Sequence record: OP172791
Length of the DNA stretch: 64,000 nucleotides
DNA from: Escherichia phage ECO340P1
Direction: 5' to 3' (one strand)
The notes beneath the pieces were generated by a model, which was not told the DNA's origin, did no database searches, and was given only the letters and a program-made list of their open reading frames with translations. The position numbers and the translations under genes are program-made. Positions 20,082 through 39,282 of the stretch are shown here, in pieces. Numbering within the stretch: position 1 is the first letter of the stretch; every line of letters starts with the position of its first letter.

Positions 20082-22757
20082 TTAGTCGTAATATTTCAAA
20101 CCTGTAATGAACTTCGATCCCCAATCCGCACTTGCGGCGGTGAACGTCAACATCCAAGTTGTAGCTGTACCAGTGAAGACCTCTCGTTGCACAGTACCAT
20201 CAGTGTGGTAAATGTCCACGCCAGTATGTCCATTCTTAGGAATAGTGAAGGTAACAGCACTGGTAGTGTCTCGTGCATAAGAACAAACAAATGGTGTCCC
20301 CGCCCAAACTGGATTTGTCATATCACCCATCTCAAGCTGTGGAACCCAAGCAATAAGACCTGCCGTACCATCTCCTGCGAAAGTGTCTGATCCACTTGCA
20401 TTCAAAGCTATAATCTCATAGGTTATAGATGCTTGTTTGGCAACTGTCACTTTGTGTAGAATTACACGATACCAACCGTTCCCCATATCGATTATGTTTG
20501 CATCTGCACCTGTAAATGTTCCAGCTACAAGATCATAAGTCCCTTCGTTAATCTCATCTCCTGAAGTCAATTTGAGTTTCACTTTAGTGATCCCGTCTGG
20601 CTTCAAGAATACGGATGCCGCCCAGTGCTTACCTGCTGTAATATCAGAAGCTGTATTCACTGCTGATAAAATATGTTGTCCTGAAGTTGTAGAAGGTGTT
20701 AACTTGTAAGTGTTAGCCGTAGTTCCAACCGGAGAGTTGATTGTTGATGCTGTGACTGTCAAGTTCGTCTTCAACCACGGGGAAGCTGTTGTCAAGTTAT
20801 TGTTGATAAAGATATGTGTACGGTTGGCTGCTACAACACGTCTACCTTGTGGAGTTGTACCAACATATTCTAAAGGTGCTACGGGAGCAGAACTCTCTGT
20901 AGGTACAAGGATATCTCCAGAAGCCCTGGCATAACGGTTACTCCTGTTGACCTTTACATCCGCCGGAATAGTTTCTTGCGTCAAATCATAGTCCATCACA
21001 ATGACCACAGCATTCACTGTGAGATAAGAACTATCTTCGGCAGTTACCACACCTTGATAAGTTGCTCTACAACCGATACGACAACCTCCATCAGCAACCG
21101 CTGTAATAACGCCTGTAACGGGGTCAACTGTTGCTACCGTAGGGTCATTAGAGAAATACTCAACAACCACACCAGGTAAGCTTGCTGCTCCTGTTGGCGT
21201 TATTTCTGCTACCATTGTTTGTGTTGTTCCTACATCCATCGCAGATAAGCTAGGAGTGTAAACGCTCAATGTTGAAGCATATCCTCCAGAGGTATCTGAT
21301 AAAGTTGTTCCTTCAGCGTTTAAGGCTGTCATACCTGCATCAAAACCACCTTCTGCATGGAAAGTCATTAAACCAGTAGATGATATTGTCATGTTTGCAG
21401 GGGCAGAAGAAGTGTATTTAATATTGAAAAGTTTACCTCCTTCTGGGCTAACAGAATGTGTCAACTGTTTAGTTCCACCTACAATACAAATTCCTAAAGA
21501 ATCTGTAGTTAAGCCAGTTGCCAGAATATCACCCGTAATCACGGAGCTTGCTATTGGTGTGAATTTATTATAGTTTAGACCACTATTGAACAGATACGAG
21601 GCTTTCCCATCTTTCCAAATACCGGAATAATACATATCCCCGTTATAAACGAAAAAGGTTCCTTGATAACCTAATTGGTTAGTAATATCCATATTCAGCG
21701 TATGAACGCTTGTGAGCTTGTTTATATCCCAGGAACCCACTCCTTCAGGTTTAACTGGTTTTCCCACTTGGAGTGGATCTCCGCTCGCAGAATCATACCC
21801 CAAACCTAAGTTTGCAGTGTAGTTCTTACCAATAGCCCACAAGGAATTGTTGATCCCAACGAAAAAAGAGTGGCGGCTTGGTGGAAATTTCCATGTTGAG
21901 AAACCTGCTGCAAAGGTATCCAGTTTAGTGTAGGTTGTTTCTGTATTAGACCTGACATATAAGTAGTTTACCGTGCCCGTACCACCGGAGGTATCTCCTA
22001 CAACTATTGTCTGGGAAACTGTATTGATGTAATCTTTGACATACACTGTTTCAGTAGCGGATATCGTGGCATTGACAAAAGCGGTTGTTGTGTTATTATT
22101 ACCTGCTAAACCTTTACTAGCTCCACAAACACGCAAGGTTCCCACATTGTTGACATAAGAGCATTGGTTGTAACCTGCATCAAAAGCAACTGCTGAACTT
22201 GTTATCTGACGAGGAGTAGAAACTTCGTTAGTAGTGCTTGCACCTAAACTACCTACTGTGTTTTGACCCGATCCATAAAGAACACCACTATTCATTAACC
22301 AGAGAGTATTGTTATACCCTCCTTTAACCTCTTTAAGATTGGCTAAAGAAATAGTCCCTGTTATTACAGATGGAAAGCTGGTCCAAGTAGTTACACATGC
22401 ATCCGTACCACCTGCTGCTATAGATCCTACCAACCCTGCTGTCAATCCTGAATATTGCCATCCCCCACTGTTAGTTTTAATAACAAAACAACGATCTGCG
22501 GTAAACACATCCGCTACTACAGTAGAAGCTAAGTGGAAATTATTGAATCGTGCACTACGAGTTCCATCTGCAATCTCACCAAAGAGGTTTGCGCCTTGAG
22601 TAAACAATCTACCATCATTAAGCAAAATTGCCAAACTGCTGTTAGAATTACCAGCGTTATCTGGGTAATCTAAAGTAATTACTTTTTTAACAATACCTGC
22701 TGGCAGAGGAACGACACCAGTGCTGGTCATAATAGTAAATATTGGAATTGGAAACAT
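20082..22757 (-). CDS. tail fibre / receptor-binding protein
   Basis: 891 aa, Gly/Thr/Ser/Asn-rich beta-type composition; last gene of the tail fibre block. Confidence 0.6.
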   Translation of the reverse strand: MFPIPIFTIMTSTGVVPLPAGIVKKVITLDYPDNAGNSNSSLAILLNDGRLFTQGANLFGEIADGTRSARFNNFHLASTVVADVFTADRCFVIKTNSGGWQYSGLTAGLVGSIAAGGTDACVTTWTSFPSVITGTISLANLKEVKGGYNNTLWLMNSGVLYGSGQNTVGSLGASTTNEVSTPRQITSSAVAFDAGYNQCSYVNNVGTLRVCGASKGLAGNNNTTTAFVNATISATETVYVKDYINTVSQTIVVGDTSGGTGTVNYLYVRSNTETTYTKLDTFAAGFSTWKFPPSRHSFFVGINNSLWAIGKNYTANLGLGYDSASGDPLQVGKPVKPEGVGSWDINKLTSVHTLNMDITNQLGYQGTFFVYNGDMYYSGIWKDGKASYLFNSGLNYNKFTPIASSVITGDILATGLTTDSLGICIVGGTKQLTHSVSPEGGKLFNIKYTSSAPANMTISSTGLMTFHAEGGFDAGMTALNAEGTTLSDTSGGYASTLSVYTPSLSAMDVGTTQTMVAEITPTGAASLPGVVVEYFSNDPTVATVDPVTGVITAVADGGCRIGCRATYQGVVTAEDSSYLTVNAVVIVMDYDLTQETIPADVKVNRSNRYARASGDILVPTESSAPVAPLEYVGTTPQGRRVVAANRTHIFINNNLTTASPWLKTNLTVTASTINSPVGTTANTYKLTPSTTSGQHILSAVNTASDITAGKHWAASVFLKPDGITKVKLKLTSGDEINEGTYDLVAGTFTGADANIIDMGNGWYRVILHKVTVAKQASITYEIIALNASGSDTFAGDGTAGLIAWVPQLEMGDMTNPVWAGTPFVCSYARDTTSAVTFTIPKNGHTGVDIYHTDGTVQREVFTGTATTWMLTFTAASADWGSKFITGLKYYD

Positions 22758-22798: not shown

Positions 22799-24823
22799 TT
22801 ATCGTGTTACAACAACCATGTCCACGATATTACCCACACCAGGATACGTTAATTGCAAAATTGTTACTGCGTTAGCAGTAGTTGCTATTTCTGTATCATT
22901 CAGTGCTCCATAAGACGCATCTAGTGTAACCGTGTGTCCCGTTGTATCTTGAATCAAATAAATCATTGCTGAAAATGCTTTAGGTTTTGTAGATCCAGTG
23001 ACACCAGGCCATGCTCCAACTGTCAGAGCGTCAGTTACTGTAACAACATACATATTGGAAGTTCCAGAAGGAGTCCAAGATGCTCCAGAGTTGGCAGTAG
23101 TTGTTTCAAGTTCCATGAAACCTGCTGTAACTTTAGTTGGTGTTATAGCTTCTGTAGGATCTGATCCTGATATTTCGATCCAGTTCCCATCAGAACGACC
23201 ATACGTCAAGCCGTCTTGAGGTGCTTCTGGTATACTAGGAAGAGTTCCTATAAGTGTCCACGTAGAAGAATCTGTTTTCTTGAACACTGCTCCAGTGGTA
23301 GTATTGAAGGCGTAATCATTGATAACACCATCTCCTGCGACTGGATTAGTTGTTGCTACAAACCACTGTGCGCCGTCCTTACCGTTGGTCCCATCTGTAC
23401 CGTTGGTTCCGTTTGTTCCAGGATCACCCTTATCTCCTTTATCCCCTTTTTCACCTTTGTCGCCTTTAATACTTCCCATGTCAACAAAAGATGCGGAATT
23501 GGTGTCTTGATCGTAGGTATAGATATAAAGATTACTAGTATCTTCAGTTAAGTAGGCATCACCATAGTTATTATAAACAGGGAGAGCTTCACTGTTCGGA
23601 ACATGACCTTTAGCTGTAATTGATGTTCCTCCAAGACTGCCAACATTCATCCATTCTGTAGCATCTTGAACCCAAACATACAAATCATTATTAATTTTAT
23701 ATGCATCACCTACTTCTCCAGTAGGAGGAAGTTCAGCTTCACTGTTCAGAACCCCGATAATCTCTAAGCCTGATCCTGTTGCACCCACTGGTCCTTGTGG
23801 ACCTAGTTCACCTTGTGGACCTCGCTCTCCTTGATCACCCTTGTCTCCTTTTGGACCTTTAAGTGAGTCAATAAAATCTACTTCTGTCCCTTCATTACCA
23901 GCATCCAGCCAACTTTGATATGCAGATTTCCCTTCATCTCCATCTGTTCCATCAAGACCGTCTTTACCTGCCTCACCTTGTGGACCTTGAGGACCAACAA
24001 TATTACCCATGTTGACCCAAGCTGTCCCATTAGAGACATAAAGATTACCATTGATAGAATAAGCTTGGCTTACGTTTTCAGAGTTAGGTTGTGGTAAGTT
24101 ACTTGTAGAAGGTAAATCCCCACGATAATCAAAACCGTTGGCGTTAACACCAGGTGCTCCCTGTGGCCCTGTAGGACCAACATCACCTTTATCACCTTTT
24201 ATAGAGGTAAGAAAGTCATAAACAGATCCTGTATTACCATCTGCCAACCATACCTCATAAGCTGATTTCCCTTCTGGTCCAAGAGAAGAAATAAGTTTCC
24301 AAACAGAACCATCCCAAGCATAGATTACATCGCCTACGATATAACCGTCCCCTGCAACGTTACCTGTAGATGGTAGCTCACTAGTGCTTGCTAATGATCC
24401 TTTAATATTAAGTTGAGCACCAGTATCTCCTTTCAAAGAAGCAAGCCATTGTGCTTCTGTTCCAACAAAACCATTATCAAGTGCGATCTGATAAGCTGAT
24501 TTACCAGCTTCAGGTATTGTTTCCGACAGATCATCGATCTGTTGCTGCACTGCCGTAAACTTGGCATTGATAATTGCTATATCATCAGCGGTCCCAACAT
24601 TTTGCCATGCAAGGGAAGAAATACCACCTGTGGTGGCTGGTGTAGAGTTTGCTGGAACTACTTTAGGAAAAGTTCCTTTCCATTGGTAATAATTCCCTTC
24701 TGCTGCTAACAGCAAAACTTCACGGGAATTACGTAATGTAAAACCTGCCTCAAAACTGCGACGTTTTCGATAAGTAGCTTCTACCAGATCGGCTATCGCA
24801 CTATTAGGTCTTGTTAAATTCAT
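22799..24823 (-). CDS. tail fibre protein with collagen-like Gly-X-Y repeats
   Basis: Several runs such as GDKGDVGPTGPQGAPG and KGDKGEKGDKGDKGDPGTNGTNGTDG, interspersed with repeated GKSAY modules. Confidence 0.65.
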   Translation of the reverse strand: MNLTRPNSAIADLVEATYRKRRSFEAGFTLRNSREVLLLAAEGNYYQWKGTFPKVVPANSTPATTGGISSLAWQNVGTADDIAIINAKFTAVQQQIDDLSETIPEAGKSAYQIALDNGFVGTEAQWLASLKGDTGAQLNIKGSLASTSELPSTGNVAGDGYIVGDVIYAWDGSVWKLISSLGPEGKSAYEVWLADGNTGSVYDFLTSIKGDKGDVGPTGPQGAPGVNANGFDYRGDLPSTSNLPQPNSENVSQAYSINGNLYVSNGTAWVNMGNIVGPQGPQGEAGKDGLDGTDGDEGKSAYQSWLDAGNEGTEVDFIDSLKGPKGDKGDQGERGPQGELGPQGPVGATGSGLEIIGVLNSEAELPPTGEVGDAYKINNDLYVWVQDATEWMNVGSLGGTSITAKGHVPNSEALPVYNNYGDAYLTEDTSNLYIYTYDQDTNSASFVDMGSIKGDKGEKGDKGDKGDPGTNGTNGTDGTNGKDGAQWFVATTNPVAGDGVINDYAFNTTTGAVFKKTDSSTWTLIGTLPSIPEAPQDGLTYGRSDGNWIEISGSDPTEAITPTKVTAGFMELETTTANSGASWTPSGTSNMYVVTVTDALTVGAWPGVTGSTKPKAFSAMIYLIQDTTGHTVTLDASYGALNDTEIATTANAVTILQLTYPGVGNIVDMVVVTR

Positions 24824-24886: not shown

Positions 24887-27800
24887 TTAGGTTGTTGGCA
24901 CATCTACTACTGGCGTTGGGCGAATAACTGCAGTATTACCTACAGAAACATTACTGGAATCATTAGGTATGGTTTTAATTCTAACTCCAGCACTTGTAGG
25001 CGTTACAATTGGATCTGCAATGTCTATTTTAACTGGGTTAGTCCACGTATCATTATCTTGATAAGGTGCACGAGTAATAACTGTGTCCAAATCTGCTCCA
25101 CCTACGCCAGCACCAGGAATACGGATACGTGTCCCTGCTGACAGAGGGTAATGATACAACCAAGAAGCATTTGTTGCTGTCCCGTTAGGAGTCAAGTTCT
25201 GTGTCAGGAAGGTATCTCCTGCCTGTGTAGCTCGAATACCGAAAGCTGGGATATCTGGAATATATGCCCCACTTGTTGTTACAAGGAAGAACGTATTATC
25301 CGCCTTGACTATCATATCACCTTTGTCAAACTCTTTCCCTGTTGGGAAATGCATTCCATCAATGTTTCGACTAGGATTAGGCTCTAAGTAATAAACTTTG
25401 CCCGTTGTCCCTACAATAGCTCCAATACCACCTGCGATATTGGTATACATATTAGCTTCAACATTACAGTTGACACGATGAATATCCGAGTAACGGCAAC
25501 GGCTCCACTGTGGACGACCAGTAACCATCGTCTTGCCATCTGGGTAACAGTTTACGTTAACCATTTCAAGAACAGATTTTTCTCTACGGAAGAATCCATC
25601 ATAAAATGTCCCTGGACCAGATTCAGGTTGACCAACACAATCGAAGATATTACAGGTGATGTTAGACATTGAAAGCCAAGAAGCTATACCGAACAACTGC
25701 AATGCAGCGCAACGAATATTTTCAAAGCTAACTCTGTTTTCATAACCTGGCCCAGCGGAAACTCCCGCAAAAACACGCCCAGTTTTGGTGTGAATGTTAC
25801 GAACAGAATAGTTAAAACATGGATTTGAAGGTCTGCCCTGTGCCGGAACTACCGGATTACCCTCTTCGTCCAGAACTGCGTTAGTTCCCCACTCCAAATA
25901 AATCATACGGATATTACTTGCAAGTGTGCTACCGTCTGTTTTAGGCTCTCCATAAACACCGTCAATCGTAAAATCTTTACTTCCGTACATTACAACTGCG
26001 CCAGTTGCCAAACCTGTCCCAACAGATACAGTCTGATCTGGATCGCCATGAATGTTTTCGATAGAGATATTACGACCAACTTCTACGTGGACAATCTGAC
26101 GACAACGTTTTGCAAAAACGTTACGAATTGTAATATTCTTGCAATATTGATCATCAGGGATTCCGTAACCATATGGTCCTTTACCAGCTACACCGATACC
26201 GATACCCCAGTTGGACAGAGGAATAGGAGCGTTAGTCCCATCGATATTAGACAGGTAAATATTCTCAATCACACAACCATCGTCATAATGTTTATTGATG
26301 ACGTTCAGTTCTATTGCATCACCTTGCATGTCCATGAAGGTAAGGTTACGGAAGACACCACGTGTTACTGGTTCCCCTGTTCCTTGTTGAAGGATGCCAT
26401 ACAACCCGTTTTTAAAAGTACAGTTATCAATTTCAAAAGTACCTGATATTGGGTTGCCTTGGAATACCAAGCTACCAACTTGACCTGCGCGAGGAGCACC
26501 GTCCCACAAACAATCGAACATGCGCACAGCACCACCCCAATACATAACACGAGAGTTACGGAAAGTTGTGCCTTCTACTGTAGCATTTTGCACACGATAG
26601 TCGCGTTGACCACGGAACACACCCCCACGCAAAGTGATACCTTGAATATCAAAAGAGCTTGTCGTGAAAGTCATATCGCAACCGTAAGCATCGAGAATCT
26701 TGCTTTTCGAAGATTTTGCTGCTAACAGTGCCGCTTGGAAAGCTGCTTCTGGTGTGGTATAGGTAGTTGTATTGTTAGCAAATTCGGACAAGTAGACAAC
26801 ATCGAATAAATCGTTGTATGTTCCACCACGAGGGGTTAACAGTCCTTCTGTATTAGTCAGAACCCATGCATTTGGACCTAATCCTCCGCTCGTCTCCAAG
26901 GTATCGGAAGCCAAAATACTTTTTGGTAAACTTCCAGCCCAACGATAACGACCAGCGCCACGTCCAATCGTCTGATTTTTAGCTGTCAGAGTTACATTAT
27001 TACCAAAGCTTGTAGGCAAATGAACAAACTGTCCACGCTCAACAGCCAGTGCAGAAAGGTCTACAGATCCTCCAGAATAAGTCATTACTCCAGAAACAGA
27101 CAAGGATGTTAAAGTGCCTGTAATGTTAGGAGGTAATGTGTAGGAAGACTGCGCTACCGGATCATACAGAGCTTTAATCCCTGTTAACGATTGACCTGCT
27201 GTTGCGTAAGCCACCTCATCATCTAACAAACCATACTTACGAGCAATAGTTTGCAGAGGGACTTTATCCATGCTTTCTGTTAGTTCTTCCGTTTTTGTTT
27301 CTAAACTAACAAGACGGTTCTCTAGATTAGGATCTGTATCTGCTGAAGCTACGATTTTGCCAATATAAGCAAAAAGTTTGTTTGGCAGTCCTGTTGCAGG
27401 ATCGTGTCCCAAAGGTTCAGATAAGATGATCTTACTATCTTCTATACGGAAAGCTTCCCCCAGAACCTGAATAACACCATTGATCGTAACAATAGCACTA
27501 TCAAAGATGTAAGGAGGACTAATTACTGTTTCATAACCAGTTGCACCAGAATATACCCAAGGGGTGACTTCTGTTGCCAATTGTTCTGTCTTCAGTCCCC
27601 ACAATACCCAGTTGTTATCTCCTACTGGAGTCCCTTGCATAGGGATTGGGTTAACCAATGTAGCGTTAGGGGCATAGTAATAACCGCTCAATACTCCATT
27701 CTGGAAATAACGAAGTTGGTTAAAAACTGTTTCGTTTGTGCCTTGCGCCCAATCCAATGGGCTTTTAAAGAAAAAGTTGTCAACAAGGGCTTTTCTCAGG

Positions 27801-27940
27801 GTTGGTATCAACCCTGATTCTGTTTCAATACTCTCTGTAGCACTTCCATTAATAACATCATGGAGTTGGTTAGATGAGAAAATAACCAGGTCTACGCCCT
27901 GTTCGAGAGACGTTGCTGGATATGTTGGGAATGTTGCCAT
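24887..27940 (-). CDS. tailspike protein, probable right-handed beta-helix depolymerase
   Basis: 1017 aa; central region has periodic N/G/V/I-rich repeats (NITIRNV, NISIENI, NIRMIYLE) typical of parallel beta-helix tailspikes. Confidence 0.55.
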   Translation of the reverse strand: MATFPTYPATSLEQGVDLVIFSSNQLHDVINGSATESIETESGLIPTLRKALVDNFFFKSPLDWAQGTNETVFNQLRYFQNGVLSGYYYAPNATLVNPIPMQGTPVGDNNWVLWGLKTEQLATEVTPWVYSGATGYETVISPPYIFDSAIVTINGVIQVLGEAFRIEDSKIILSEPLGHDPATGLPNKLFAYIGKIVASADTDPNLENRLVSLETKTEELTESMDKVPLQTIARKYGLLDDEVAYATAGQSLTGIKALYDPVAQSSYTLPPNITGTLTSLSVSGVMTYSGGSVDLSALAVERGQFVHLPTSFGNNVTLTAKNQTIGRGAGRYRWAGSLPKSILASDTLETSGGLGPNAWVLTNTEGLLTPRGGTYNDLFDVVYLSEFANNTTTYTTPEAAFQAALLAAKSSKSKILDAYGCDMTFTTSSFDIQGITLRGGVFRGQRDYRVQNATVEGTTFRNSRVMYWGGAVRMFDCLWDGAPRAGQVGSLVFQGNPISGTFEIDNCTFKNGLYGILQQGTGEPVTRGVFRNLTFMDMQGDAIELNVINKHYDDGCVIENIYLSNIDGTNAPIPLSNWGIGIGVAGKGPYGYGIPDDQYCKNITIRNVFAKRCRQIVHVEVGRNISIENIHGDPDQTVSVGTGLATGAVVMYGSKDFTIDGVYGEPKTDGSTLASNIRMIYLEWGTNAVLDEEGNPVVPAQGRPSNPCFNYSVRNIHTKTGRVFAGVSAGPGYENRVSFENIRCAALQLFGIASWLSMSNITCNIFDCVGQPESGPGTFYDGFFRREKSVLEMVNVNCYPDGKTMVTGRPQWSRCRYSDIHRVNCNVEANMYTNIAGGIGAIVGTTGKVYYLEPNPSRNIDGMHFPTGKEFDKGDMIVKADNTFFLVTTSGAYIPDIPAFGIRATQAGDTFLTQNLTPNGTATNASWLYHYPLSAGTRIRIPGAGVGGADLDTVITRAPYQDNDTWTNPVKIDIADPIVTPTSAGVRIKTIPNDSSNVSVGNTAVIRPTPVVDVPTT

Positions 27941-32624: not shown

Positions 32625-34235
32625 TTATACTATATTGATGGTCCCCGATATACTTATGGCTCTTGCTGAACCGTCAGATACATCTGTCCAGTGTGCGTAC
32701 CGAGTAGTTCCATCTATGAATGTTAATAAGAACTTAGCTGTATTATCTGACACCACCTCTAAGGAAACATCGTATAATTGTTTAGCTGAGTTTGCTGTAG
32801 CATAGTAAAATGCGTACAGGCCGCCCCTAACTGTACCTCCAAATCCAGATTTAATGCCATAAACAGGAGCTATATTTACAATTACATCACCTGTTGCTGA
32901 CGGTATAGCTGCTACTGTTGTAGCTATGGAAAAACTTAATGTGTTATACCATATTCCAGAGGTCAGAGTTTGGCTCGACATCGTTACACCATCAGCACTT
33001 GCAAGAACAGCCCCTGAATTGGGTCCAAAGGTCATTCCTGTACGCATTTTTTCAGCATATCCATAACCTGAAATGTGATTTCTGGCTATCCCTGAATTGT
33101 TTTCAAATGAAATCCATATGTCTGTTACATATTGCTCACCCGAAACCTGAAAATCTTTTATTGTCGATCTTTGAGTCGTGGTGATCATTGGTAAGGTACT
33201 TTTTGCTACTGTGTCATGTCTGGACGGTAATACAAGAATCCCATCAAGAACGCAGTCCCATGCATCACAAATTACACCAACCCCACCATTACTTCTAGAT
33301 GGTGCATTATTGGTGTTTTTCCTTACCGGAGTATCAAGAATAATATTTGAATATGTAGAAAAACCTGCGTTCTCTGTGATTACGATACCAACATTCATCT
33401 TCCCCATCACGCCTACGCGATTATCAACAGTGTTTCCCCAGGGGTGTGCTTTATCAACCACATTTGCGCTCTTATTAAACTTTAGCCCAATTGAATAACC
33501 AACTGGCGAAAGTTCACTAAACCAACTGTCAGTTGAATTACTTTCAAATCCTACAGAGTTATCAAGCCTTGTATTTGCTACAACCATCGTGAATTTGCTG
33601 GCTTTTCCTTCGTAGTTGTTCGTCTCATAGAACCCGCCATTATTAAAACCGATGATTGCCCCTCCTTCGTAAGTCCATCCGTAGCAATGGCGAACACAAA
33701 CACCTTTAGCAGAAATACCTGTTGTGTAATCCTCTGCTACTAAGAAGAGGTTATAGCAATTTGTTTTGTTAGCTTTAGTAAAGTGATGGGAACTGCTGTA
33801 TGTAGGAGTATCTGCTCCACCATCCATTATATAAGCATATTCAGCAGTTAATCCTGACTTAACTTTAGCTACAGCGTTCCATCGCACAGTTACATTCTCT
33901 TTGTGCATAATAGGAAGGGATGTAAAGAGTATGTCCTCATTGACGAATAGTGTTCCACCACCATTAGCTGACAACTCAGACATCGCGGCGTTAAAACCTT
34001 CTTCTCCGGCCCCCCATCCCCGTACATCACCTTCATCTCTCCAGCGTGACATTTGAAGTTCTGGGTACTTGGTAGCTCCAGAAATATCTTTTAACTGGGT
34101 GGCTAAAACCACCCCAGTGTCAGTAAGAAAGTTGGAAACTGTGCTTTTAACAGTCTTATCAGGTTGGTCTAAAACCAGGTAATCAGAACCATTAACTTTT
34201 GATGTTTCGGGTAAATTAGTAATTGTAGTTGACAT
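32625..34235 (-). CDS. tailspike / tail fibre protein
   Basis: 536 aa; N-terminus TITNLPETSKVNGSDYLVLDQ typical of tailspike adaptor regions; Gly/Asn/Thr-rich body. Confidence 0.55.
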   Translation of the reverse strand: MSTTITNLPETSKVNGSDYLVLDQPDKTVKSTVSNFLTDTGVVLATQLKDISGATKYPELQMSRWRDEGDVRGWGAGEEGFNAAMSELSANGGGTLFVNEDILFTSLPIMHKENVTVRWNAVAKVKSGLTAEYAYIMDGGADTPTYSSSHHFTKANKTNCYNLFLVAEDYTTGISAKGVCVRHCYGWTYEGGAIIGFNNGGFYETNNYEGKASKFTMVVANTRLDNSVGFESNSTDSWFSELSPVGYSIGLKFNKSANVVDKAHPWGNTVDNRVGVMGKMNVGIVITENAGFSTYSNIILDTPVRKNTNNAPSRSNGGVGVICDAWDCVLDGILVLPSRHDTVAKSTLPMITTTQRSTIKDFQVSGEQYVTDIWISFENNSGIARNHISGYGYAEKMRTGMTFGPNSGAVLASADGVTMSSQTLTSGIWYNTLSFSIATTVAAIPSATGDVIVNIAPVYGIKSGFGGTVRGGLYAFYYATANSAKQLYDVSLEVVSDNTAKFLLTFIDGTTRYAHWTDVSDGSARAISISGTINIV

Positions 34236-34243
34236 TTTTACTC

Positions 34244-36397
34244 CTATATATAAAATTTTTGTGTTGTTACTAAATCTTCTCCAGATTTAGTGGCTAATGT
34301 AATTCCACTTATGGTGGCAATCTCAACATTTACCTGTTTAAGAGTGATATCCTGTAAATAAACGTTCAAAGGCACGTTACCCATATAGAAAACTTGGGAT
34401 TGAGAATTAACTACCGTGATAGAATCGTGCATTATTTGAGGATAGGCCCATATATATTGTGTAAGTCCATTGAACTTATTGGCGTTCAACACTATGTTAC
34501 CTATAATCATCTTCCAAAGATATGTGCGGTAGTTTGATTCAGGATCAAAGCCATACAAAGGTGCAAGAGTAGCATCTGGAACAAAACCTGCAAGATAGTG
34601 AATATCAGAATATTCAAAACCTAATTTTTCATGTGGTATGGTAATTGCATCAAATGCTTTCATCATTTTACCTTCCAGAAGCCAGTCGTAACACTCCGAA
34701 CAGTAAAAATCAAAAGCTTCAGGAATGTAGTAATCAGACGGAAAGTTAACTTTCTCCATCAACCCGTTGCCAATAATTGATGGTAAGAATGGAAGCAATG
34801 TTACTTTAGCTCCTGGATAAGTTGCTCTAGTATCTGTTGCAAACTTTGTAACTCTTAACCCTAGTTTACGAGACAAAAATGCATAGTATTCGTCAAATGG
34901 CGTTCCTGTTTTATAATTATCTATTGTTCCTGCATCTTGTGCAAATAAGCCTGTTTCTGTATTGAATGCCAGTTTGGTAGTGTAATCATATATACAAGGC
35001 ATTTTACTTGCTGTATTATACCACCACCAAGGTTCACCAATTTGAATGACGACTGGAATATTGTTAGCTTGAGAAATAGATGCTATTTTGTTAATAACAT
35101 TTTGCAAATATTCCATACCTTCATCAATTGTTGGAGATAACACATAACTAGGCGGCTCATAACCTGTTGCTGCAAGAGCATCGTTCCAATCATGTTGAAC
35201 CCATTCTACAGGACAAACTGTGCTCATCAACTCAAAACTCAAAGAGTTCATTATTGTGTAGCCATTTTCATTAGCTATAGAATGGAAACTGTTAAGCCAA
35301 GCTTCTGTAGCCGGATTCAGGAAAACAGATCTATTCAAAGCCCAAGATGTTCCGTTCCATGAGAACTCATAATAGTGAGACATTCCGTTGTAATGGTTAA
35401 TCATTCCACGATAACCTAGTGCATATGTATTATAAATAACTCTCTCTGGAGTCAGGTTATACATATCATCATAAGATGTGCACATGCGAATATCATGTTC
35501 AGGCTGGACAAGGTTGCTGACTTTCATCATACTGTAACCAGAAGTAGGTTCAAGAAGAGTGAAAGTAAACCAAGCCTCTTGACTGGCAATAGGCACAATC
35601 TCTTCTATTTCTTCATACCTTGCTGTAATCAAAGAGAAGAAAATATTATCTACAGCACTCATATCCAAAGGAATATCATTATTAGGGCCAGAAAAGATAT
35701 TACCAAAATCTAACTTGATTGTGGCTGTTTTACCATCTTCTGAAATATCTGAAGCGTAGAATCCTAAACTGACATAATGAACACTTTTATCCAAGAGAGT
35801 TACAGTCAAAGTCGGCACCAAAGGTTCTTCTTTAAAACCTGGCATGTTTTGACTAATTTCCATTTTAAACCAAAGTTTCTCTGAACTTAAATCTGTGTGG
35901 GGTAAATACCCAACACCTTTGTGATCATATTTGTCAACTGTGCTCCAGATAACCCCTGCCAAACCTGCTGTTGTTCTGTTTACAAATCTTGCAGTAAAAG
36001 AGTCTCCATGAGATACAATAGAACAACTTTCCGTTGCTTGAGAATCTATTGTCCAATACATAGGAGAGAACATTTTAACGTCTTTTGTAGTCCAAGTTAT
36101 TGGAGTAGTATTTTCTTGGATAGTAGTTATAATACAATTGATGGTTGTTTCAACCATCATGTTATTTTGACTAATCCCTGAAACTTGGAGGGAGAAGTTA
36201 AGATCTATTGAGTTCTTTGGTCGTTCAAATACTTCAACCACAATAGTAGCAGAATCAGCATCATCAGGGAACACAAGTGTTCCCGATTTTGCAATATAAT
36301 CTCTACCAGCGACTGCTGTTCCATCAACAGTCGTGTAGTTAAATGAACTCGCATTTACTCTCTTGTCTCGCGTGACAGTAAATATAGCTTGTTTCAT
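34244..36397 (-). CDS. tail-associated protein with N-terminal Calx-beta domain
   Basis: FTVTRDKRVNASSFNYTTVDGTAVAGRDYIAKSGTLVFPDDADSATIVVEVFERP fits the Calx-beta signature. Confidence 0.55.
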   Translation of the reverse strand: MKQAIFTVTRDKRVNASSFNYTTVDGTAVAGRDYIAKSGTLVFPDDADSATIVVEVFERPKNSIDLNFSLQVSGISQNNMMVETTINCIITTIQENTTPITWTTKDVKMFSPMYWTIDSQATESCSIVSHGDSFTARFVNRTTAGLAGVIWSTVDKYDHKGVGYLPHTDLSSEKLWFKMEISQNMPGFKEEPLVPTLTVTLLDKSVHYVSLGFYASDISEDGKTATIKLDFGNIFSGPNNDIPLDMSAVDNIFFSLITARYEEIEEIVPIASQEAWFTFTLLEPTSGYSMMKVSNLVQPEHDIRMCTSYDDMYNLTPERVIYNTYALGYRGMINHYNGMSHYYEFSWNGTSWALNRSVFLNPATEAWLNSFHSIANENGYTIMNSLSFELMSTVCPVEWVQHDWNDALAATGYEPPSYVLSPTIDEGMEYLQNVINKIASISQANNIPVVIQIGEPWWWYNTASKMPCIYDYTTKLAFNTETGLFAQDAGTIDNYKTGTPFDEYYAFLSRKLGLRVTKFATDTRATYPGAKVTLLPFLPSIIGNGLMEKVNFPSDYYIPEAFDFYCSECYDWLLEGKMMKAFDAITIPHEKLGFEYSDIHYLAGFVPDATLAPLYGFDPESNYRTYLWKMIIGNIVLNANKFNGLTQYIWAYPQIMHDSITVVNSQSQVFYMGNVPLNVYLQDITLKQVNVEIATISGITLATKSGEDLVTTQKFYI

Positions 36398-36405
36398 TTT
36401 ACCCC

Positions 36406-39282
36406 TTACTCAGTAACGTCCACACTAATGTTTGCCATTGTCAAAACAGTAAGTGCAGGAATATTGCTCGAATCCAAAACAGGTAATGCATTTTGGGGAT
36501 TAAGTTTTTTGTATAAAGCATACAACCCAAAACCACGTAACAACTCTCCAGCGTGGAAGCCAAAGAAGACTCCGTTATCACTGTCTGGTCTAGGAGCGGC
36601 ACTCCAACAACCATTCATAACGTGATTAGGACCAAGAACAATATAATTTTCCTGAATAAGTTCAAAACAGCGGTCTGCTACTATTTTAATGTTAGGAATT
36701 TCTGAATCATATCCAGCCATCCCCATTATAGCACATCCCGCCATAAAGAGCGCAGACATGTGACTTGTAAAGTCATCTACAGGCGCAGCCACTTCTCCGT
36801 TAGGATAAAATATTGTTGGTGTTCTTCCTTCGTTGTTATCTTGGAACCACTTCAGATAGTTGATCCAGTTTTTACAAACTGTTAAAAGTTTTTCAGGAAC
36901 TTCTGCTCCTCGTTGTTTCAGTTCGTATACTGTATGACACGCACAGAAGAATGCTCGTGCTTCATAACCATCCCAAGCTTTATCGTTCCAATGATACATT
37001 GTGAACTCATTCTTGTTTCCGTATTTATGAGCATCCCAACGATCCCAAACATAAGCTTGTGCCATTGGCCCAGGCATTACAGGGGCAAACTTATTATAAA
37101 ACCACATTTGTGAATCATATAAAAAGTCTATACTGTTGTTCATACGAACCCAGTCAATATCTCTCCCTTTAAAACAATATAAGGATGGGTATTGATAACC
37201 TGGGTAAGGAATACCACGCCAACCGTCATATAATGCTGTATTAGGATCACTAATATTGGAAAATGGAATGATTCCTGGAGTATAATTCAAACTGTCAAGT
37301 TTGTAGTCCAGTATTGTACAATCTCCAAGTTTTGCTGTATAAGGATTTTCAGATGAAACTGTAACCCTGAAATACATTGTGTAATCATCACCAGCGGCTG
37401 AAGAATACAAAGATGGGATATCGTTAACGCAATAAAAGTCGATTGCCCCTGTCAAGCCATTTGCAGGTTCAGAATCCAATGCAATGTTGATCTGATCAAC
37501 AGCAGTCAGGTTTATTGACGAAGGTTTTGTCTCTGTGTCATCGTGATTAGGTTGCCAAGTACTTAATTTGAAATCAGCAGGACTTAAAGCTTTAGTAACC
37601 CATGCAGAATTTGTTTTTTCTAACATAGCCCACCATCTCCAACCTGCGGAATCCGTAATAGTGATGTTAAAATCATCTGCGTATGAACGATACGTAATAG
37701 ATTTTAAATTGGCTGTTTTAGTTGGTGTTAACCAAAACCCAATAGTAAAACCACCATCTGAATCCATATTAGCAGAAACTATCTGATCACTATTTGTCCC
37801 AGCAATACCAGTTGCATATTTATATTGTATCACAGTATTGCTTCCCCAGTCAACAATGATTCTAGGTTCAGCAATAATATATACACCACCTCCAGGAGGT
37901 TCAGTGCGCATAAAACTGGATAAAGGTATATCCATCTTAGTCATATTAGCTGCACCAAGAGGTAAGCCACAACGATATGTCACTGTGTCTGTTTCACTCT
38001 TAGTCTTGCTTAATTCTAACTCTGGACGGAAAAGAACACCTTCCCCTGCATCATCTACGCCTTGAAACTCAATACGTAGTTTTGAATTCTGATCCACTCT
38101 GAACCAAACTGCCTGTTGTTCTAGAGTTGTTTGTGCTGCAACATCTTGGCGAATTACTGTGTATCCTAATTCGTCACGAGAATATTTAGGTATTGCTGTA
38201 GATGGGTATGAGTAATCATAAGAAATACCATCTGTAAAAGGAATTATTGCTGTCGTAGATCTACGGAAGAATTTATCAAACATATCGATGTTTGAGTAGT
38301 CTTGACACAGCAATAAAGAAGATTGCCAGCAAAGCCAGTATTTTCTCTCTCCTGTGATCTGATACATCAAGTAGTTTGCATCACACCACCACGTTTCAGC
38401 ATCGGAAGCATTATCTTGATAACCTAACTCTACCGGAACGTTTACAGGACGGTTATGCCACATCTCATTACGTTTAAGTAGATACCCACCGTGTTCTACA
38501 GGGTTGCATGTAGCATAGTTGAATTTATAGTCACCGTTCACAGAAGCGTTTTTAAGTTGCACTGTTCCATATTCTGCAAAGCTATGACCAGTAGATAAAA
38601 TGTTACCATCCCAATCAACTTTACGTCCTAGACGGTCTATAATCCATTCAACGTCCCACTGATCTCCATATTCTTTCCAGTTGGTTGAACCATCTGGGTT
38701 AGTTGCATACACTGTTGCGTTAACAGAGTTCCAACCAAGATTACCATTGAAAGCAAACCAAGCTTTATCTAAGTATTCTCCCCAGTGTGGCGCACCTTTA
38801 GGAATAATAGTCCTTCCGTTAATCCAAGTCATCATGCTACCTTTGAACCCACCGTGCGTAGGATACCCATCATCTGTGAGAGGGTAATGTGCTAAACGTG
38901 GTTCTTTACCATTGATGATCCAGTTGGGACGATATTTAGCCGGAGGATCAGGAATAGGTTGGCCCCCGAAGAAGTGATCTATATAAGCTTGCCAATACTT
39001 CTCGGCAGATTCAAGATATTTTTTATCCCCTGTAGCCAAATATGCATAAGCAAAACCAGTGATAAGCACAGATTGACCTTCGGTAGTAGCGTCACCGTTT
39101 GGTTGCCCTTCCTGCGCTGTCCAGTTAATAAAGTGTCTGTTGTTCGCCAATACGTTTTGTGGGTTGATAATGTAATGCTGAACCGTAGGATCTATGGTAA
39201 GCCCAGTATTTCTTTCCAAAAACTGAACCAACCCTTCAATCAACTGAAACGTGTTGTCAATATTGTGCTTAACTCTTGACAT
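36406..39282 (-). CDS. large tail-associated protein with glycoside-hydrolase-like (alpha/alpha toroid) regions
   Basis: 958 aa; W/Y/G-rich segments such as GFAYAYLATGDKKYLESAEKYWQAY; fold assignment is tentative. Confidence 0.45.
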   Translation of the reverse strand: MSRVKHNIDNTFQLIEGLVQFLERNTGLTIDPTVQHYIINPQNVLANNRHFINWTAQEGQPNGDATTEGQSVLITGFAYAYLATGDKKYLESAEKYWQAYIDHFFGGQPIPDPPAKYRPNWIINGKEPRLAHYPLTDDGYPTHGGFKGSMMTWINGRTIIPKGAPHWGEYLDKAWFAFNGNLGWNSVNATVYATNPDGSTNWKEYGDQWDVEWIIDRLGRKVDWDGNILSTGHSFAEYGTVQLKNASVNGDYKFNYATCNPVEHGGYLLKRNEMWHNRPVNVPVELGYQDNASDAETWWCDANYLMYQITGERKYWLCWQSSLLLCQDYSNIDMFDKFFRRSTTAIIPFTDGISYDYSYPSTAIPKYSRDELGYTVIRQDVAAQTTLEQQAVWFRVDQNSKLRIEFQGVDDAGEGVLFRPELELSKTKSETDTVTYRCGLPLGAANMTKMDIPLSSFMRTEPPGGGVYIIAEPRIIVDWGSNTVIQYKYATGIAGTNSDQIVSANMDSDGGFTIGFWLTPTKTANLKSITYRSYADDFNITITDSAGWRWWAMLEKTNSAWVTKALSPADFKLSTWQPNHDDTETKPSSINLTAVDQINIALDSEPANGLTGAIDFYCVNDIPSLYSSAAGDDYTMYFRVTVSSENPYTAKLGDCTILDYKLDSLNYTPGIIPFSNISDPNTALYDGWRGIPYPGYQYPSLYCFKGRDIDWVRMNNSIDFLYDSQMWFYNKFAPVMPGPMAQAYVWDRWDAHKYGNKNEFTMYHWNDKAWDGYEARAFFCACHTVYELKQRGAEVPEKLLTVCKNWINYLKWFQDNNEGRTPTIFYPNGEVAAPVDDFTSHMSALFMAGCAIMGMAGYDSEIPNIKIVADRCFELIQENYIVLGPNHVMNGCWSAAPRPDSDNGVFFGFHAGELLRGFGLYALYKKLNPQNALPVLDSSNIPALTVLTMANISVDVTE

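Follow-up and report, generated by a model that had tools for sequence, protein, structure and literature searches.

Calx-beta domains are known from the cytoplasmic regulatory loop of the Na+/Ca2+ exchangers NCX1 and Drosophila CALX; in CBD1 of NCX1 the calcium ligands are E385, D421, D446, D447, I449, E451, E454 and D498-500 (PMC3386913). The tail of podovirus N4 offers a second point of comparison, its six-fold non-contractile sheath being built from gp64-gp65 heterodimers in which gp65 is the receptor-binding protein (PMC13434306). Here we analyse a stretch of 64,000 nucleotides from Escherichia phage ECO340P1 (record OP172791, referred to as the window), in which one protein of 717 amino acids carries an N-terminal Calx-beta domain in front of a beta-sandwich and a TIM barrel homologous to those of N4 gp64/gp65. 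A single open reading frame (ORF) fills positions 34244-36397, with the ATG at 36397 and the stop codon at 34244-34246 of the minus strand, on which all window features described below lie; the initial annotation had given exactly these coordinates. We propose, with a probability of roughly 60%, that the Calx-beta domain is a connector that fastens this protein non-covalently to the product of the gene upstream, the ortholog of phi92 gp141.

The 717-residue protein, taken from the ORF list and its translation, is the ortholog of phi92 gp142, rV5 gp034 and phAPEC8_00170 from the Stephanstirmvirinae and Vequintavirinae, which have the same three-domain architecture and gene position and differ in nothing essential. 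With phi92 gp142 it shares 76.9% of its residues and with the rV5 homolog 43%; the DNA of the locus is 97-98.6% identical to that of Phapecoctavirus phages of E. coli. The copies vary in two points: rV5-type and some phi92/phAPEC8-type copies lack a C-terminal extension of 34 residues, and in rV5 the gp034 gene comes after the wedge gene, not after gp141 as in the window. The gene order is that of phi92 and places the ORF within a block of baseplate and tail-fibre genes. The phage is a phAPEC8-like myovirus, and baseplate hub, spike, sheath-initiator and wedge genes lie beside the ORF. The position in this block and the homology of the C-terminal 600 residues to N4 gp64/gp65 bear out the initial description as a tail protein. 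GenBank labels of the orthologs conflict with each other ('non-contractile tail sheath', 'tail assembly protein', 'capsid and scaffold', 'Calx-beta domain protein', 'putative tail fiber'), and the Calx-beta assignment as such is already public in Pfam tables and in one GenBank record.

A Calx-beta domain of six strands

The Calx-beta domain occupies residues 1-92 (36122-36397) and is real, with a match far above chance. Where the initial annotation had located it, at about residues 5-60, the profile search finds Pfam PF03160 over residues 4-82 (E 7.4e-11, 42.5 bits, gathering score 27), and the isolated domain scores 47.4 bits. When compared with the PDB sequences by phmmer, the isolated domain retrieves the calcium-binding domains of CALX and NCX1 (E 1e-7 to 1e-5); in NCBIfam the 717-residue protein has only a sub-threshold exchanger match. 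The family signature DGTA-x-AG-x-DY, located between strands C and D, is present as V24-D-G-T-A-V-A-G-R-D-Y34, and T27, A28, R32, D33 and Y34 are invariant in nine aligned family members.

The predicted structure agrees with this assignment. An AlphaFold2 model of residues 1-100 has a predicted local distance difference test (pLDDT) score of 81.7, and its top 32 Foldseek matches in the PDB are all Calx-beta domains (CALX CBD1, NCX1 CBD1 and CBD2, integrin beta4). Template modelling (TM) scores are 0.62-0.83 for these 32 and 0.75-0.83 for the best 15, with a root-mean-square deviation of about 2 Å for most. Generic Ig-like folds such as pilus chaperones and complement follow only later (E > 0.02, TM about 0.5). 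Fold and DGTA...DY signature are thus shared with NCX1 CBD1/CBD2 and Drosophila CALX. The Calx-beta domain of integrin beta4 (PDB 3FQ4, 3FSO, 3H6A) has the same fold at an equal level of similarity, but there the full seven strands are present. The domain had also been called uncommon in phage tail proteins, and this holds roughly: it occurs in 264 of 50,697 phage records, nearly all of them from this one family together with 13 Erwinia phages, and only 7 entries of the BFVD viral structure set match Calx-beta at E ≤ 0.001.

What is missing is strand A. The Pfam alignment sets in only at position 24 of the 119 in the profile, and both AlphaFold2 models, of the full-length protein and of residues 1-100, contain six strands (3-10, 17-25, 38-43, 49-56, 66-73 and 85-90), corresponding to B-G, instead of the seven of a complete Calx-beta domain. 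The aligned phage copies, taken from the E. coli phage family, the GH48 proteins of an Erwinia myovirus and an Erwinia podovirus and a stand-alone protein of 117 residues, begin at the start of strand B of NCX1, 16 residues into CBD1. We also derived our own Calx-beta hidden Markov model (HMM), with strand A included, from 185 repeats that occur in large bacterial proteins. In the strand A region the consensus of this HMM reads PTLSVSDVTVTEGDSGTGEAVFTVTLS, and all phage copies in the fetched loci start at HMM position 23-26, except for the divergent rV5 copy, which starts at 37. The missing strand is not a start-codon artefact because a Shine-Dalgarno-like AAGGGG (36402-36407), read directly from the sequence 4 nt 5' of the ATG, supports the annotated start. 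A miscalled start was further rejected since the stop codon of the gp141 ortholog, which the AAGGGG overlaps, lies only 8 nt before the ATG and since the starts of the orthologs coincide.

Proposed pairing with the proteins encoded upstream

The upstream gene (36406-39282) encodes a protein of 958 residues that PHROG 2871 ('tail protein') and a gene order identical to that of phi92 mark as the phi92 gp141 ortholog; it is the proposed partner of the Calx-beta domain. Its homologs extend to myoviruses, podophages (7-11, GAP52) and jumbo phages (121Q), and also to many genome records of Enterobacter and E. coli that are presumably prophages. Sequence searches of Pfam, NCBIfam and the PDB gave no match for it; it is a widespread tail protein whose fold these searches do not recognise. 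In 120 listed homologs the conserved core ends about 25 residues past an FFGF(H/W)xGE motif. The ECO340P1 protein continues with a C-terminal tail of 28 residues, NALPVLDSSNIPALTVLTMANISVDVTE (36409-36492), after which the gp142 ortholog starts with MKQAIFTVTRD. This tail, which homolog comparison and strand-A likeness mark as the proposed strand-A donor, is present in only 4 of the 120 homologs, namely those of the four phAPEC8/phi92-type clusters.

The distribution of the two elements carries the argument for a connector. In the phage collection the tail is found in 122 records and a phi92/phAPEC8-type Calx-beta domain (identity at least 60%) likewise in 122, and the other 72 phage records with gp141 homologs match in the core only. 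Relatives of gp141 with 73-76% identity on contigs L009 and L010 have no tail, and no gp142 gene is present there. A natural fusion, P0365 (6691-11364 of the SU10-like podophage contig L011), joins a gp141-like core to the NCTSP_N beta-sandwich and the TIM barrel in a single protein of 1557 residues, and a linker of 20 residues replaces both the gp141 tail and the Calx-beta domain. Separate proteins thus come with both tail and Calx-beta domain, and neither is there when the proteins are fused or gp142 is lacking, as would be expected of a non-covalent connector that becomes dispensable on fusion.

A parallel pair is seen in rV5-like phages, where the same Calx-beta socket would pair with a similar tail on the baseplate wedge protein gp035. 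This protein, encoded upstream of gp034 in rV5, extends past its conserved core with ...TTIYCESITVNATRQEG, and the wedge proteins of L016 and L018 end in ...YVDNISVDATE and ...CESIVVDATIVTEA, respectively. The motif ...DNISVDATE of the wedge resembles ...ANISVDVTE of the gp141 tail in the window. Directly next to the wedge genes of L016 and L018 comes a gp142-type protein of 687 or 692 residues. Calx-beta is on record for the gp142-type proteins of rV5 and L016; for that of L018 only the NCTSP domains are on record, and its N-terminus aligns with rV5 gp034. Wedge orthologs of phi92-type genomes and of L009, L014 and L015 have no extension, and no Calx-beta gene follows. At L012 (4690-4902) and L019 (4190-4413) the wedge gene is followed by a gap of 212-223 nt with a stop-ridden TIM-barrel remnant (tblastn E 1e-11 and 8e-8), which indicates recent loss of the gp034/gp142 gene, and the wedge extension is degenerate there.

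The Calx-beta domain also behaves as a module. It is combined with NCTSP domains only in members of the Stephanstirmvirinae and Vequintavirinae, and TIM-barrel homologs without it occur in Acinetobacter prophages and as N4 gp64/gp65, which have neither Calx-beta nor DUF2460; alphaproteobacterial homologs carry a C-terminal DUF2460 in its place. Three proteins are encoded in the equivalent slot, behind the wedge genes, of Erwinia phage pEp_SNUABM_01 (Henunavirus, Vequintavirinae): a wedge-cellulase fusion, an 806-residue protein with N-terminal Calx-beta and GH48, and the 117-residue protein that consists of Calx-beta only. The Calx-beta-GH48 protein has a counterpart in the N4-like Erwinia podovirus Fifi450, with 56% identity from end to end. 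A myovirus-specific baseplate anchor was rejected on the basis of this podovirus protein, which led us to the idea of docking to a partner. The anchor to the baseplate suggested by the initial annotation is borne out in an altered form, the evidence pointing to attachment to the upstream gp141 ortholog in ECO340P1 and to wedge gp035 in rV5-like phages. The partner cellulases of pEp_SNUABM_01 and Fifi450 are similar only beyond their first 230-267 residues, so that the Calx-beta protein seems to dock on the shared part of the partner and not on lineage-specific virion parts.

Two further observations concern the Erwinia phages. A two-gene cassette of a GH5 cellulase (52% identity) and Calx-beta-GH48 (56%) is common to the Henunavirus locus L001 (1323-6339) and the Erwinia podovirus locus L007 (3727-8418). 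The stand-alone Calx-beta protein of the Henunavirus myovirus ends in a strand-A-like motif, PVISISDAVLTTV.

Two comparisons are suggestive of a resemblance between the upstream tails and strand A at the level of sequence. In virtual fusions, the upstream tail was joined to its acceptor, and the start in the Pfam profile and the score were compared before and after. The profile start moved from 24 to 14 for the ECO340P1 pair (+1.0 bit), from 25 to 6 for an rV5-type pair (+3.0 bits; the acceptor was P0009, a family member, not rV5 gp034) and from 35 to 9 for the Henunavirus pair (+3.7 bits), with no extension for Fifi450 (about 0 bits). Control fusions with a shuffled tail and with the gp146 tail gave shifts from 24 to 20 (+0.4 bits) and from 24 to 23 (-1.1 bits). 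With our own HMM, the best of the last seven 16-residue segments of each upstream protein was ranked against 9,298 control segments from the proteins of this phage. Controls scoring at least as high as the tail amounted to 0.34% for ECO340P1, 0.06% for phi92, 0.14% for rV5, 0.16% for L016 and 0.13% for L018. The motif PPVGIIISISDAVLTES of the Henunavirus wedge-cellulase ranks first of 4,173 segments for both Calx-beta acceptors, and a second motif lies just upstream of it, giving two candidate donors for two acceptors. Common descent links some of the systems compared, and the motifs of the Erwinia phages had been spotted visually ahead of scoring.

The same data can be read differently. The Calx-beta domain might be accessory to the enzyme, as a spacer or as a beta-sandwich that binds carbohydrate, without a docking function, and its co-occurrence with the tail might reflect a single block of DNA. 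The full-length conservation of Calx-beta-GH48 (56%) across an Erwinia myovirus and podovirus, where the domain travels with its enzyme, is consistent with this, as is the weak strand-A signal of the ECO340P1 tail. N-terminal beta-sandwiches are found on many glycosidases; the full-length AlphaFold2 model (pLDDT 91.2, predicted TM score 0.88) suggests a fixed domain arrangement, and its Foldseek matches are enzymes of beta-sandwich plus TIM barrel. We nevertheless consider an accessory role unlikely. The fusion P0365 keeps the beta-sandwich and the TIM barrel and drops Calx-beta, so the enzyme part does not need it, and N4 gp64/gp65 and the Acinetobacter homologs likewise do without the domain. 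Moreover, two unrelated upstream proteins, gp141 and the wedge, have similar C-terminal motifs wherever a Calx-beta protein follows, and the 117-residue protein in the baseplate gene block has no enzyme part at all.

Several observations weigh against the proposed connector. The tail of the ECO340P1 protein itself gives the weakest signal of the set, with +1.0 bit compared to +0.4 for the shuffled tail and a rank of 65 among 18,553 (p about 0.02 allowing for seven segments), and the candidate donor motif of the Erwinia podovirus ranks only 26 of 3,904. At L013 (4001-4672) a wedge protein ends in the strand-A-like GYIMTISDAVISMV, yet the surrounding 4 kb contain neither a Calx-beta gene nor a remnant of one. 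The coding sequences of tail and Calx-beta domain adjoin on the DNA, so their co-occurrence could reflect inheritance as a block instead of contact. A search of the 120 listed gp141 homologs and the 39 wedge homologs gave no unsplit ancestor, in which the partner would run into a complete Calx-beta domain. Finally, AlphaFold2 predicts a confident six-stranded domain on its own (pLDDT 82-92), and a donated strand is perhaps not needed.

If the connector works by strand donation, the Calx-beta sandwich would be made without strand A, and the strand-A-like tail of gp141 would insert into it and complete the fold. We infer the physical contact between the gp141 and gp142 orthologs, the strand insertion and the chain order discussed below. 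As a tentative generalization, to which we give somewhat less than even odds, a naturally split Calx-beta domain may serve as plug and socket in phage tails, with strand A on a C-terminus or motif of one virion protein, strands B-G at the start of the next, and the fold restored from the two chains together. To the same tentative degree, the carriers of strand A may be gp141 in ECO340P1, the wedge in rV5-like phages and an internal motif of the cellulase fibre in Erwinia phages. In the literature searched we found no description of a Calx-beta form without this strand or of its pairing with a partner tail.

Calcium ligands and the C-terminal 600 residues

The initial annotation had proposed calcium-dependent attachment. 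We compared seven alignable NCX1 ligand positions in eight members of the E. coli phage family, in agreement with the HMMER alignment. Only one of the seven is conserved, D421, which corresponds to the invariant D33. E385 has no counterpart in ECO340P1, where strand A is missing, nor in the other members. D446 is replaced by E58 (E, Q, T or P in other members), D447 by R59 (R, H or K), I449 by K61 (K, A or V), E451 by S63 (S or T) and E454 by L66 (I, L, V or R). The DDD motif that comes behind strand G in NCX1 (D498-500) has no counterpart. The protein thus lacks an acidic ligand cluster of the NCX1/CALX CBD1 type. Judged by these residues, the canonical calcium site is gone or degenerate, with basic residues in part of it.

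A domain that binds calcium as in the exchangers, making adsorption or fibre conformation calcium-dependent, is very improbable on this basis. It could draw on the fold shared with NCX1/CALX CBD1, on the invariant D33, on E58, present in five of the eight family members, and on an acidic residue at positions 93-96 in all eight; if the gp141 tail supplies strand A, its terminal Glu would lie near the position of E385. However, phi92 has a Lys where the gp141 tail ends in Glu, the ligand-equivalent positions vary among orthologs, and the first 100 residues contain 11 acidic residues compared to 27 in the 139 residues of NCX1 CBD1. The Calx-beta fold of integrin beta4 is stable and functional without calcium, which likewise weighs against a calcium role; Alonso-Garcia and colleagues are said to have found in 2009 that this domain has no exchanger-type calcium site and is used in protein-protein contacts. 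The Calx-beta domain described here would be extracellular and virion-borne, unlike the exchanger loops, and probably no calcium sensor; a calcium function is not supported, and the label 'Calx-beta' is not to be read as calcium binding here.

That the match is a chance likeness of a generic Ig-like beta-sandwich, as its restriction to profile positions 24-104 of 119 might suggest, is practically ruled out by the Pfam score 15 bits over the gathering score with the DGTAxAGxDY signature intact, by the exclusively Calx-beta nature of the top 32 structural matches, and by a phmmer search of the 100-residue domain against 1.84 billion representatives, which yields 13,163 proteins at E ≤ 0.001, the best 150 of them long proteins with 7-42 matched stretches each, as expected for Calx-beta repeat proteins. 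On N-terminal architectures the best 150 of these 13,163 matches are uninformative.

The remainder of the protein is probably its working part. A linker with a semi-conserved TP(I/L)xW (residues 93-106, 36080-36121), at which the pLDDT dips to 75 (block 91-100), leads to the beta-sandwich NCTSP_N (residues 107-292, 35522-36079; PF23844, E 2.2e-16, 60.1 bits), which matches residues 51-114 and 346-416 of N4 gp65. The TIM barrel TIM-barrel_NCTSP follows (residues 299-658, 34424-35503; PF23845, E 4.6e-79, 266.4 bits), and both scores are above the cut-off of 27. The solved N4 chains are matched with E 6e-30 (9lc0_M, gp64) and 2e-12 (9lc0_I), and Foldseek aligns the protein with N4 gp64 at E 3e-21 and a TM score of 0.62. 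Residues invariant in 41 homologs include D310, D311, E455 (GEPWWW) and E568 (SECYDW), a set that we infer to be compatible with a sugar-processing site. Alignment of the family profile with E. coli PgaB ('deacetylase' versus 'glycosidase-like') by hhalign was not significant (probability 0.14), so that the match is structural only.

Published work points in the same direction. In the BASEL study the homology to N4 gp64 was noted, and the protein was described as a lateral fibre of the tail that carries a sugar deacetylase domain (PMC8594841); in a review citing Schwarzer 2012 both gp141 and gp142 of phi92 are listed under glycosidases (PMC5380687). The genes wecB and nfrB, in other words the NGR glycan, are required by N4, the Vequintavirinae and phi92-like phages alike (PMC8669472). 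From sequence, the 717-residue protein is most likely a virion tail enzyme or glycan-binding protein, and by analogy with the published genetics of this phage group its C-terminal 600 residues probably engage the wecB/nfrB-dependent surface glycan NGR. The rV5 proteomics paper and its supplements do not mention gp34, and incorporation into the virion thus rests on homology. The homology to N4 gp65/gp64 (PDB 9LC0, 9YF4, 9YF5) extends over beta-sandwich and TIM barrel, and both phage groups depend on NGR; the N4 proteins, however, have no Calx-beta domain and form a podovirus sheath, whereas the sheath of the myovirus ECO340P1 is contractile. For this reason the protein is unlikely to form a sheath as in N4, and 'non-contractile tail sheath' is a carried-over label that does not describe the protein in a myovirus.

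The block encodes further fibre proteins: one of 891 residues with RCC1-like repeats and Big_2 (20082-22757), one of 674 residues with Tail_spike_N and collagen repeats (22799-24823), and one of 1017 residues with Tail_spike_N and a beta-helix (24887-27940). In the comparison of the locus, about 21 records of the MG0656xx series titled 'Campylobacter phage' (host C. jejuni) were found to have rV5-like or phi92-like coliphage sequence, and their host label looks doubtful.

A possible connector chain and its relation to known docking systems

On the downstream side, the C-terminal extension of 34 residues (684-717, 34247-34348), delimited by alignment and with pLDDT below 50 for residues 694-717, is followed by a tailspike-like protein of 536 residues in the phi92 gp143 slot (32625-34235), assigned by alignment and PHROG tail-spike matches. 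The extension is nearly identical in phi92 gp142 and phAPEC8_00170 and absent in Schickermooser, ESCO32 and rV5. The first 76 residues of the tailspike are nearly identical to phi92 gp143 and phAPEC8_00171, and the first 54 or so are common to most other such tailspikes. A tailspike occupies the next slot in the window and in the phi92 and phAPEC8 genomes and is lacking in Schickermooser, ESCO32 and rV5, consistent with an independent report in which the gp143 position of ESCO32 is empty (PMC10269720). Within the phage collection the extension occurs in 80 records and the N-terminal part of the tailspike (about 54 residues, at least 80% identity) in 77. Extension and tailspike N-terminal part (34074-34235) are present together and absent together, and resemble a further pair of connectors or the boundary of a cassette.

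At the other end, P0356 (1097 residues) has a P2 gpI-like baseplate wedge domain (PF09684) joined to the N-terminal end of a gp141-like protein, which hints at an attachment of gp141 to the wedge. Together with the co-occurrence of extension and tailspike, this suggests a chain of baseplate wedge, gp141, gp142 and tailspike. Such a chain would be compatible with fibre I of phi92, which is L-shaped and carries the endosialidase at the tip (PMC13450770). In the 2026 cryo-EM study of phi92, neither fibre II nor the base of fibre I is assigned, and gp141 and gp142 were not considered and were given no density (PMC13450770). If the proposed pairing is correct, gp141-gp142 would be the unassigned proximal part of phi92-type side fibres, and tail enzymes could be exchanged, fused or arranged in chains across myoviruses and podoviruses. 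Phages of the phi92, phAPEC8 and rV5 types are candidates for broad-host-range therapy with several sets of side fibres, for which the mapping of genes to fibres is unsettled. Defined connectors (gp141 tail with Calx-beta, gp142 extension with tailspike N-terminus) would give a testable wiring diagram of the fibres as well as handles for exchanging receptor-binding enzymes.

Among known systems, the proposed pairing is closest in principle to donor-strand complementation in the chaperone-usher pathway and to the 'handshake' of contractile sheaths, where a strand of one subunit fills the gap in the beta-sandwich or sheet of another. The sheath initiator of phi92 itself uses a beta-strand handshake (PMC13450770). 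Outside Calx-beta, the structures that Foldseek ranks next to the domain are pilus chaperones, though the similarity is weak and there is no homology, and the contact proposed here is derived from sequence and gene patterns. With the N-terminal domains of the CBA120 tailspikes (TSP), the G7C pair gp63.1-gp66 and Tail_spike_N, the gp142 ortholog would share the principle of a conserved N-terminal docking module in front of exchangeable C-terminal enzymes. Those adaptors differ in fold and belong to trimeric spikes, whereas gp142 resembles the sheath subunits of N4 with their gp64-gp65 heterodimers (PMC13434306).

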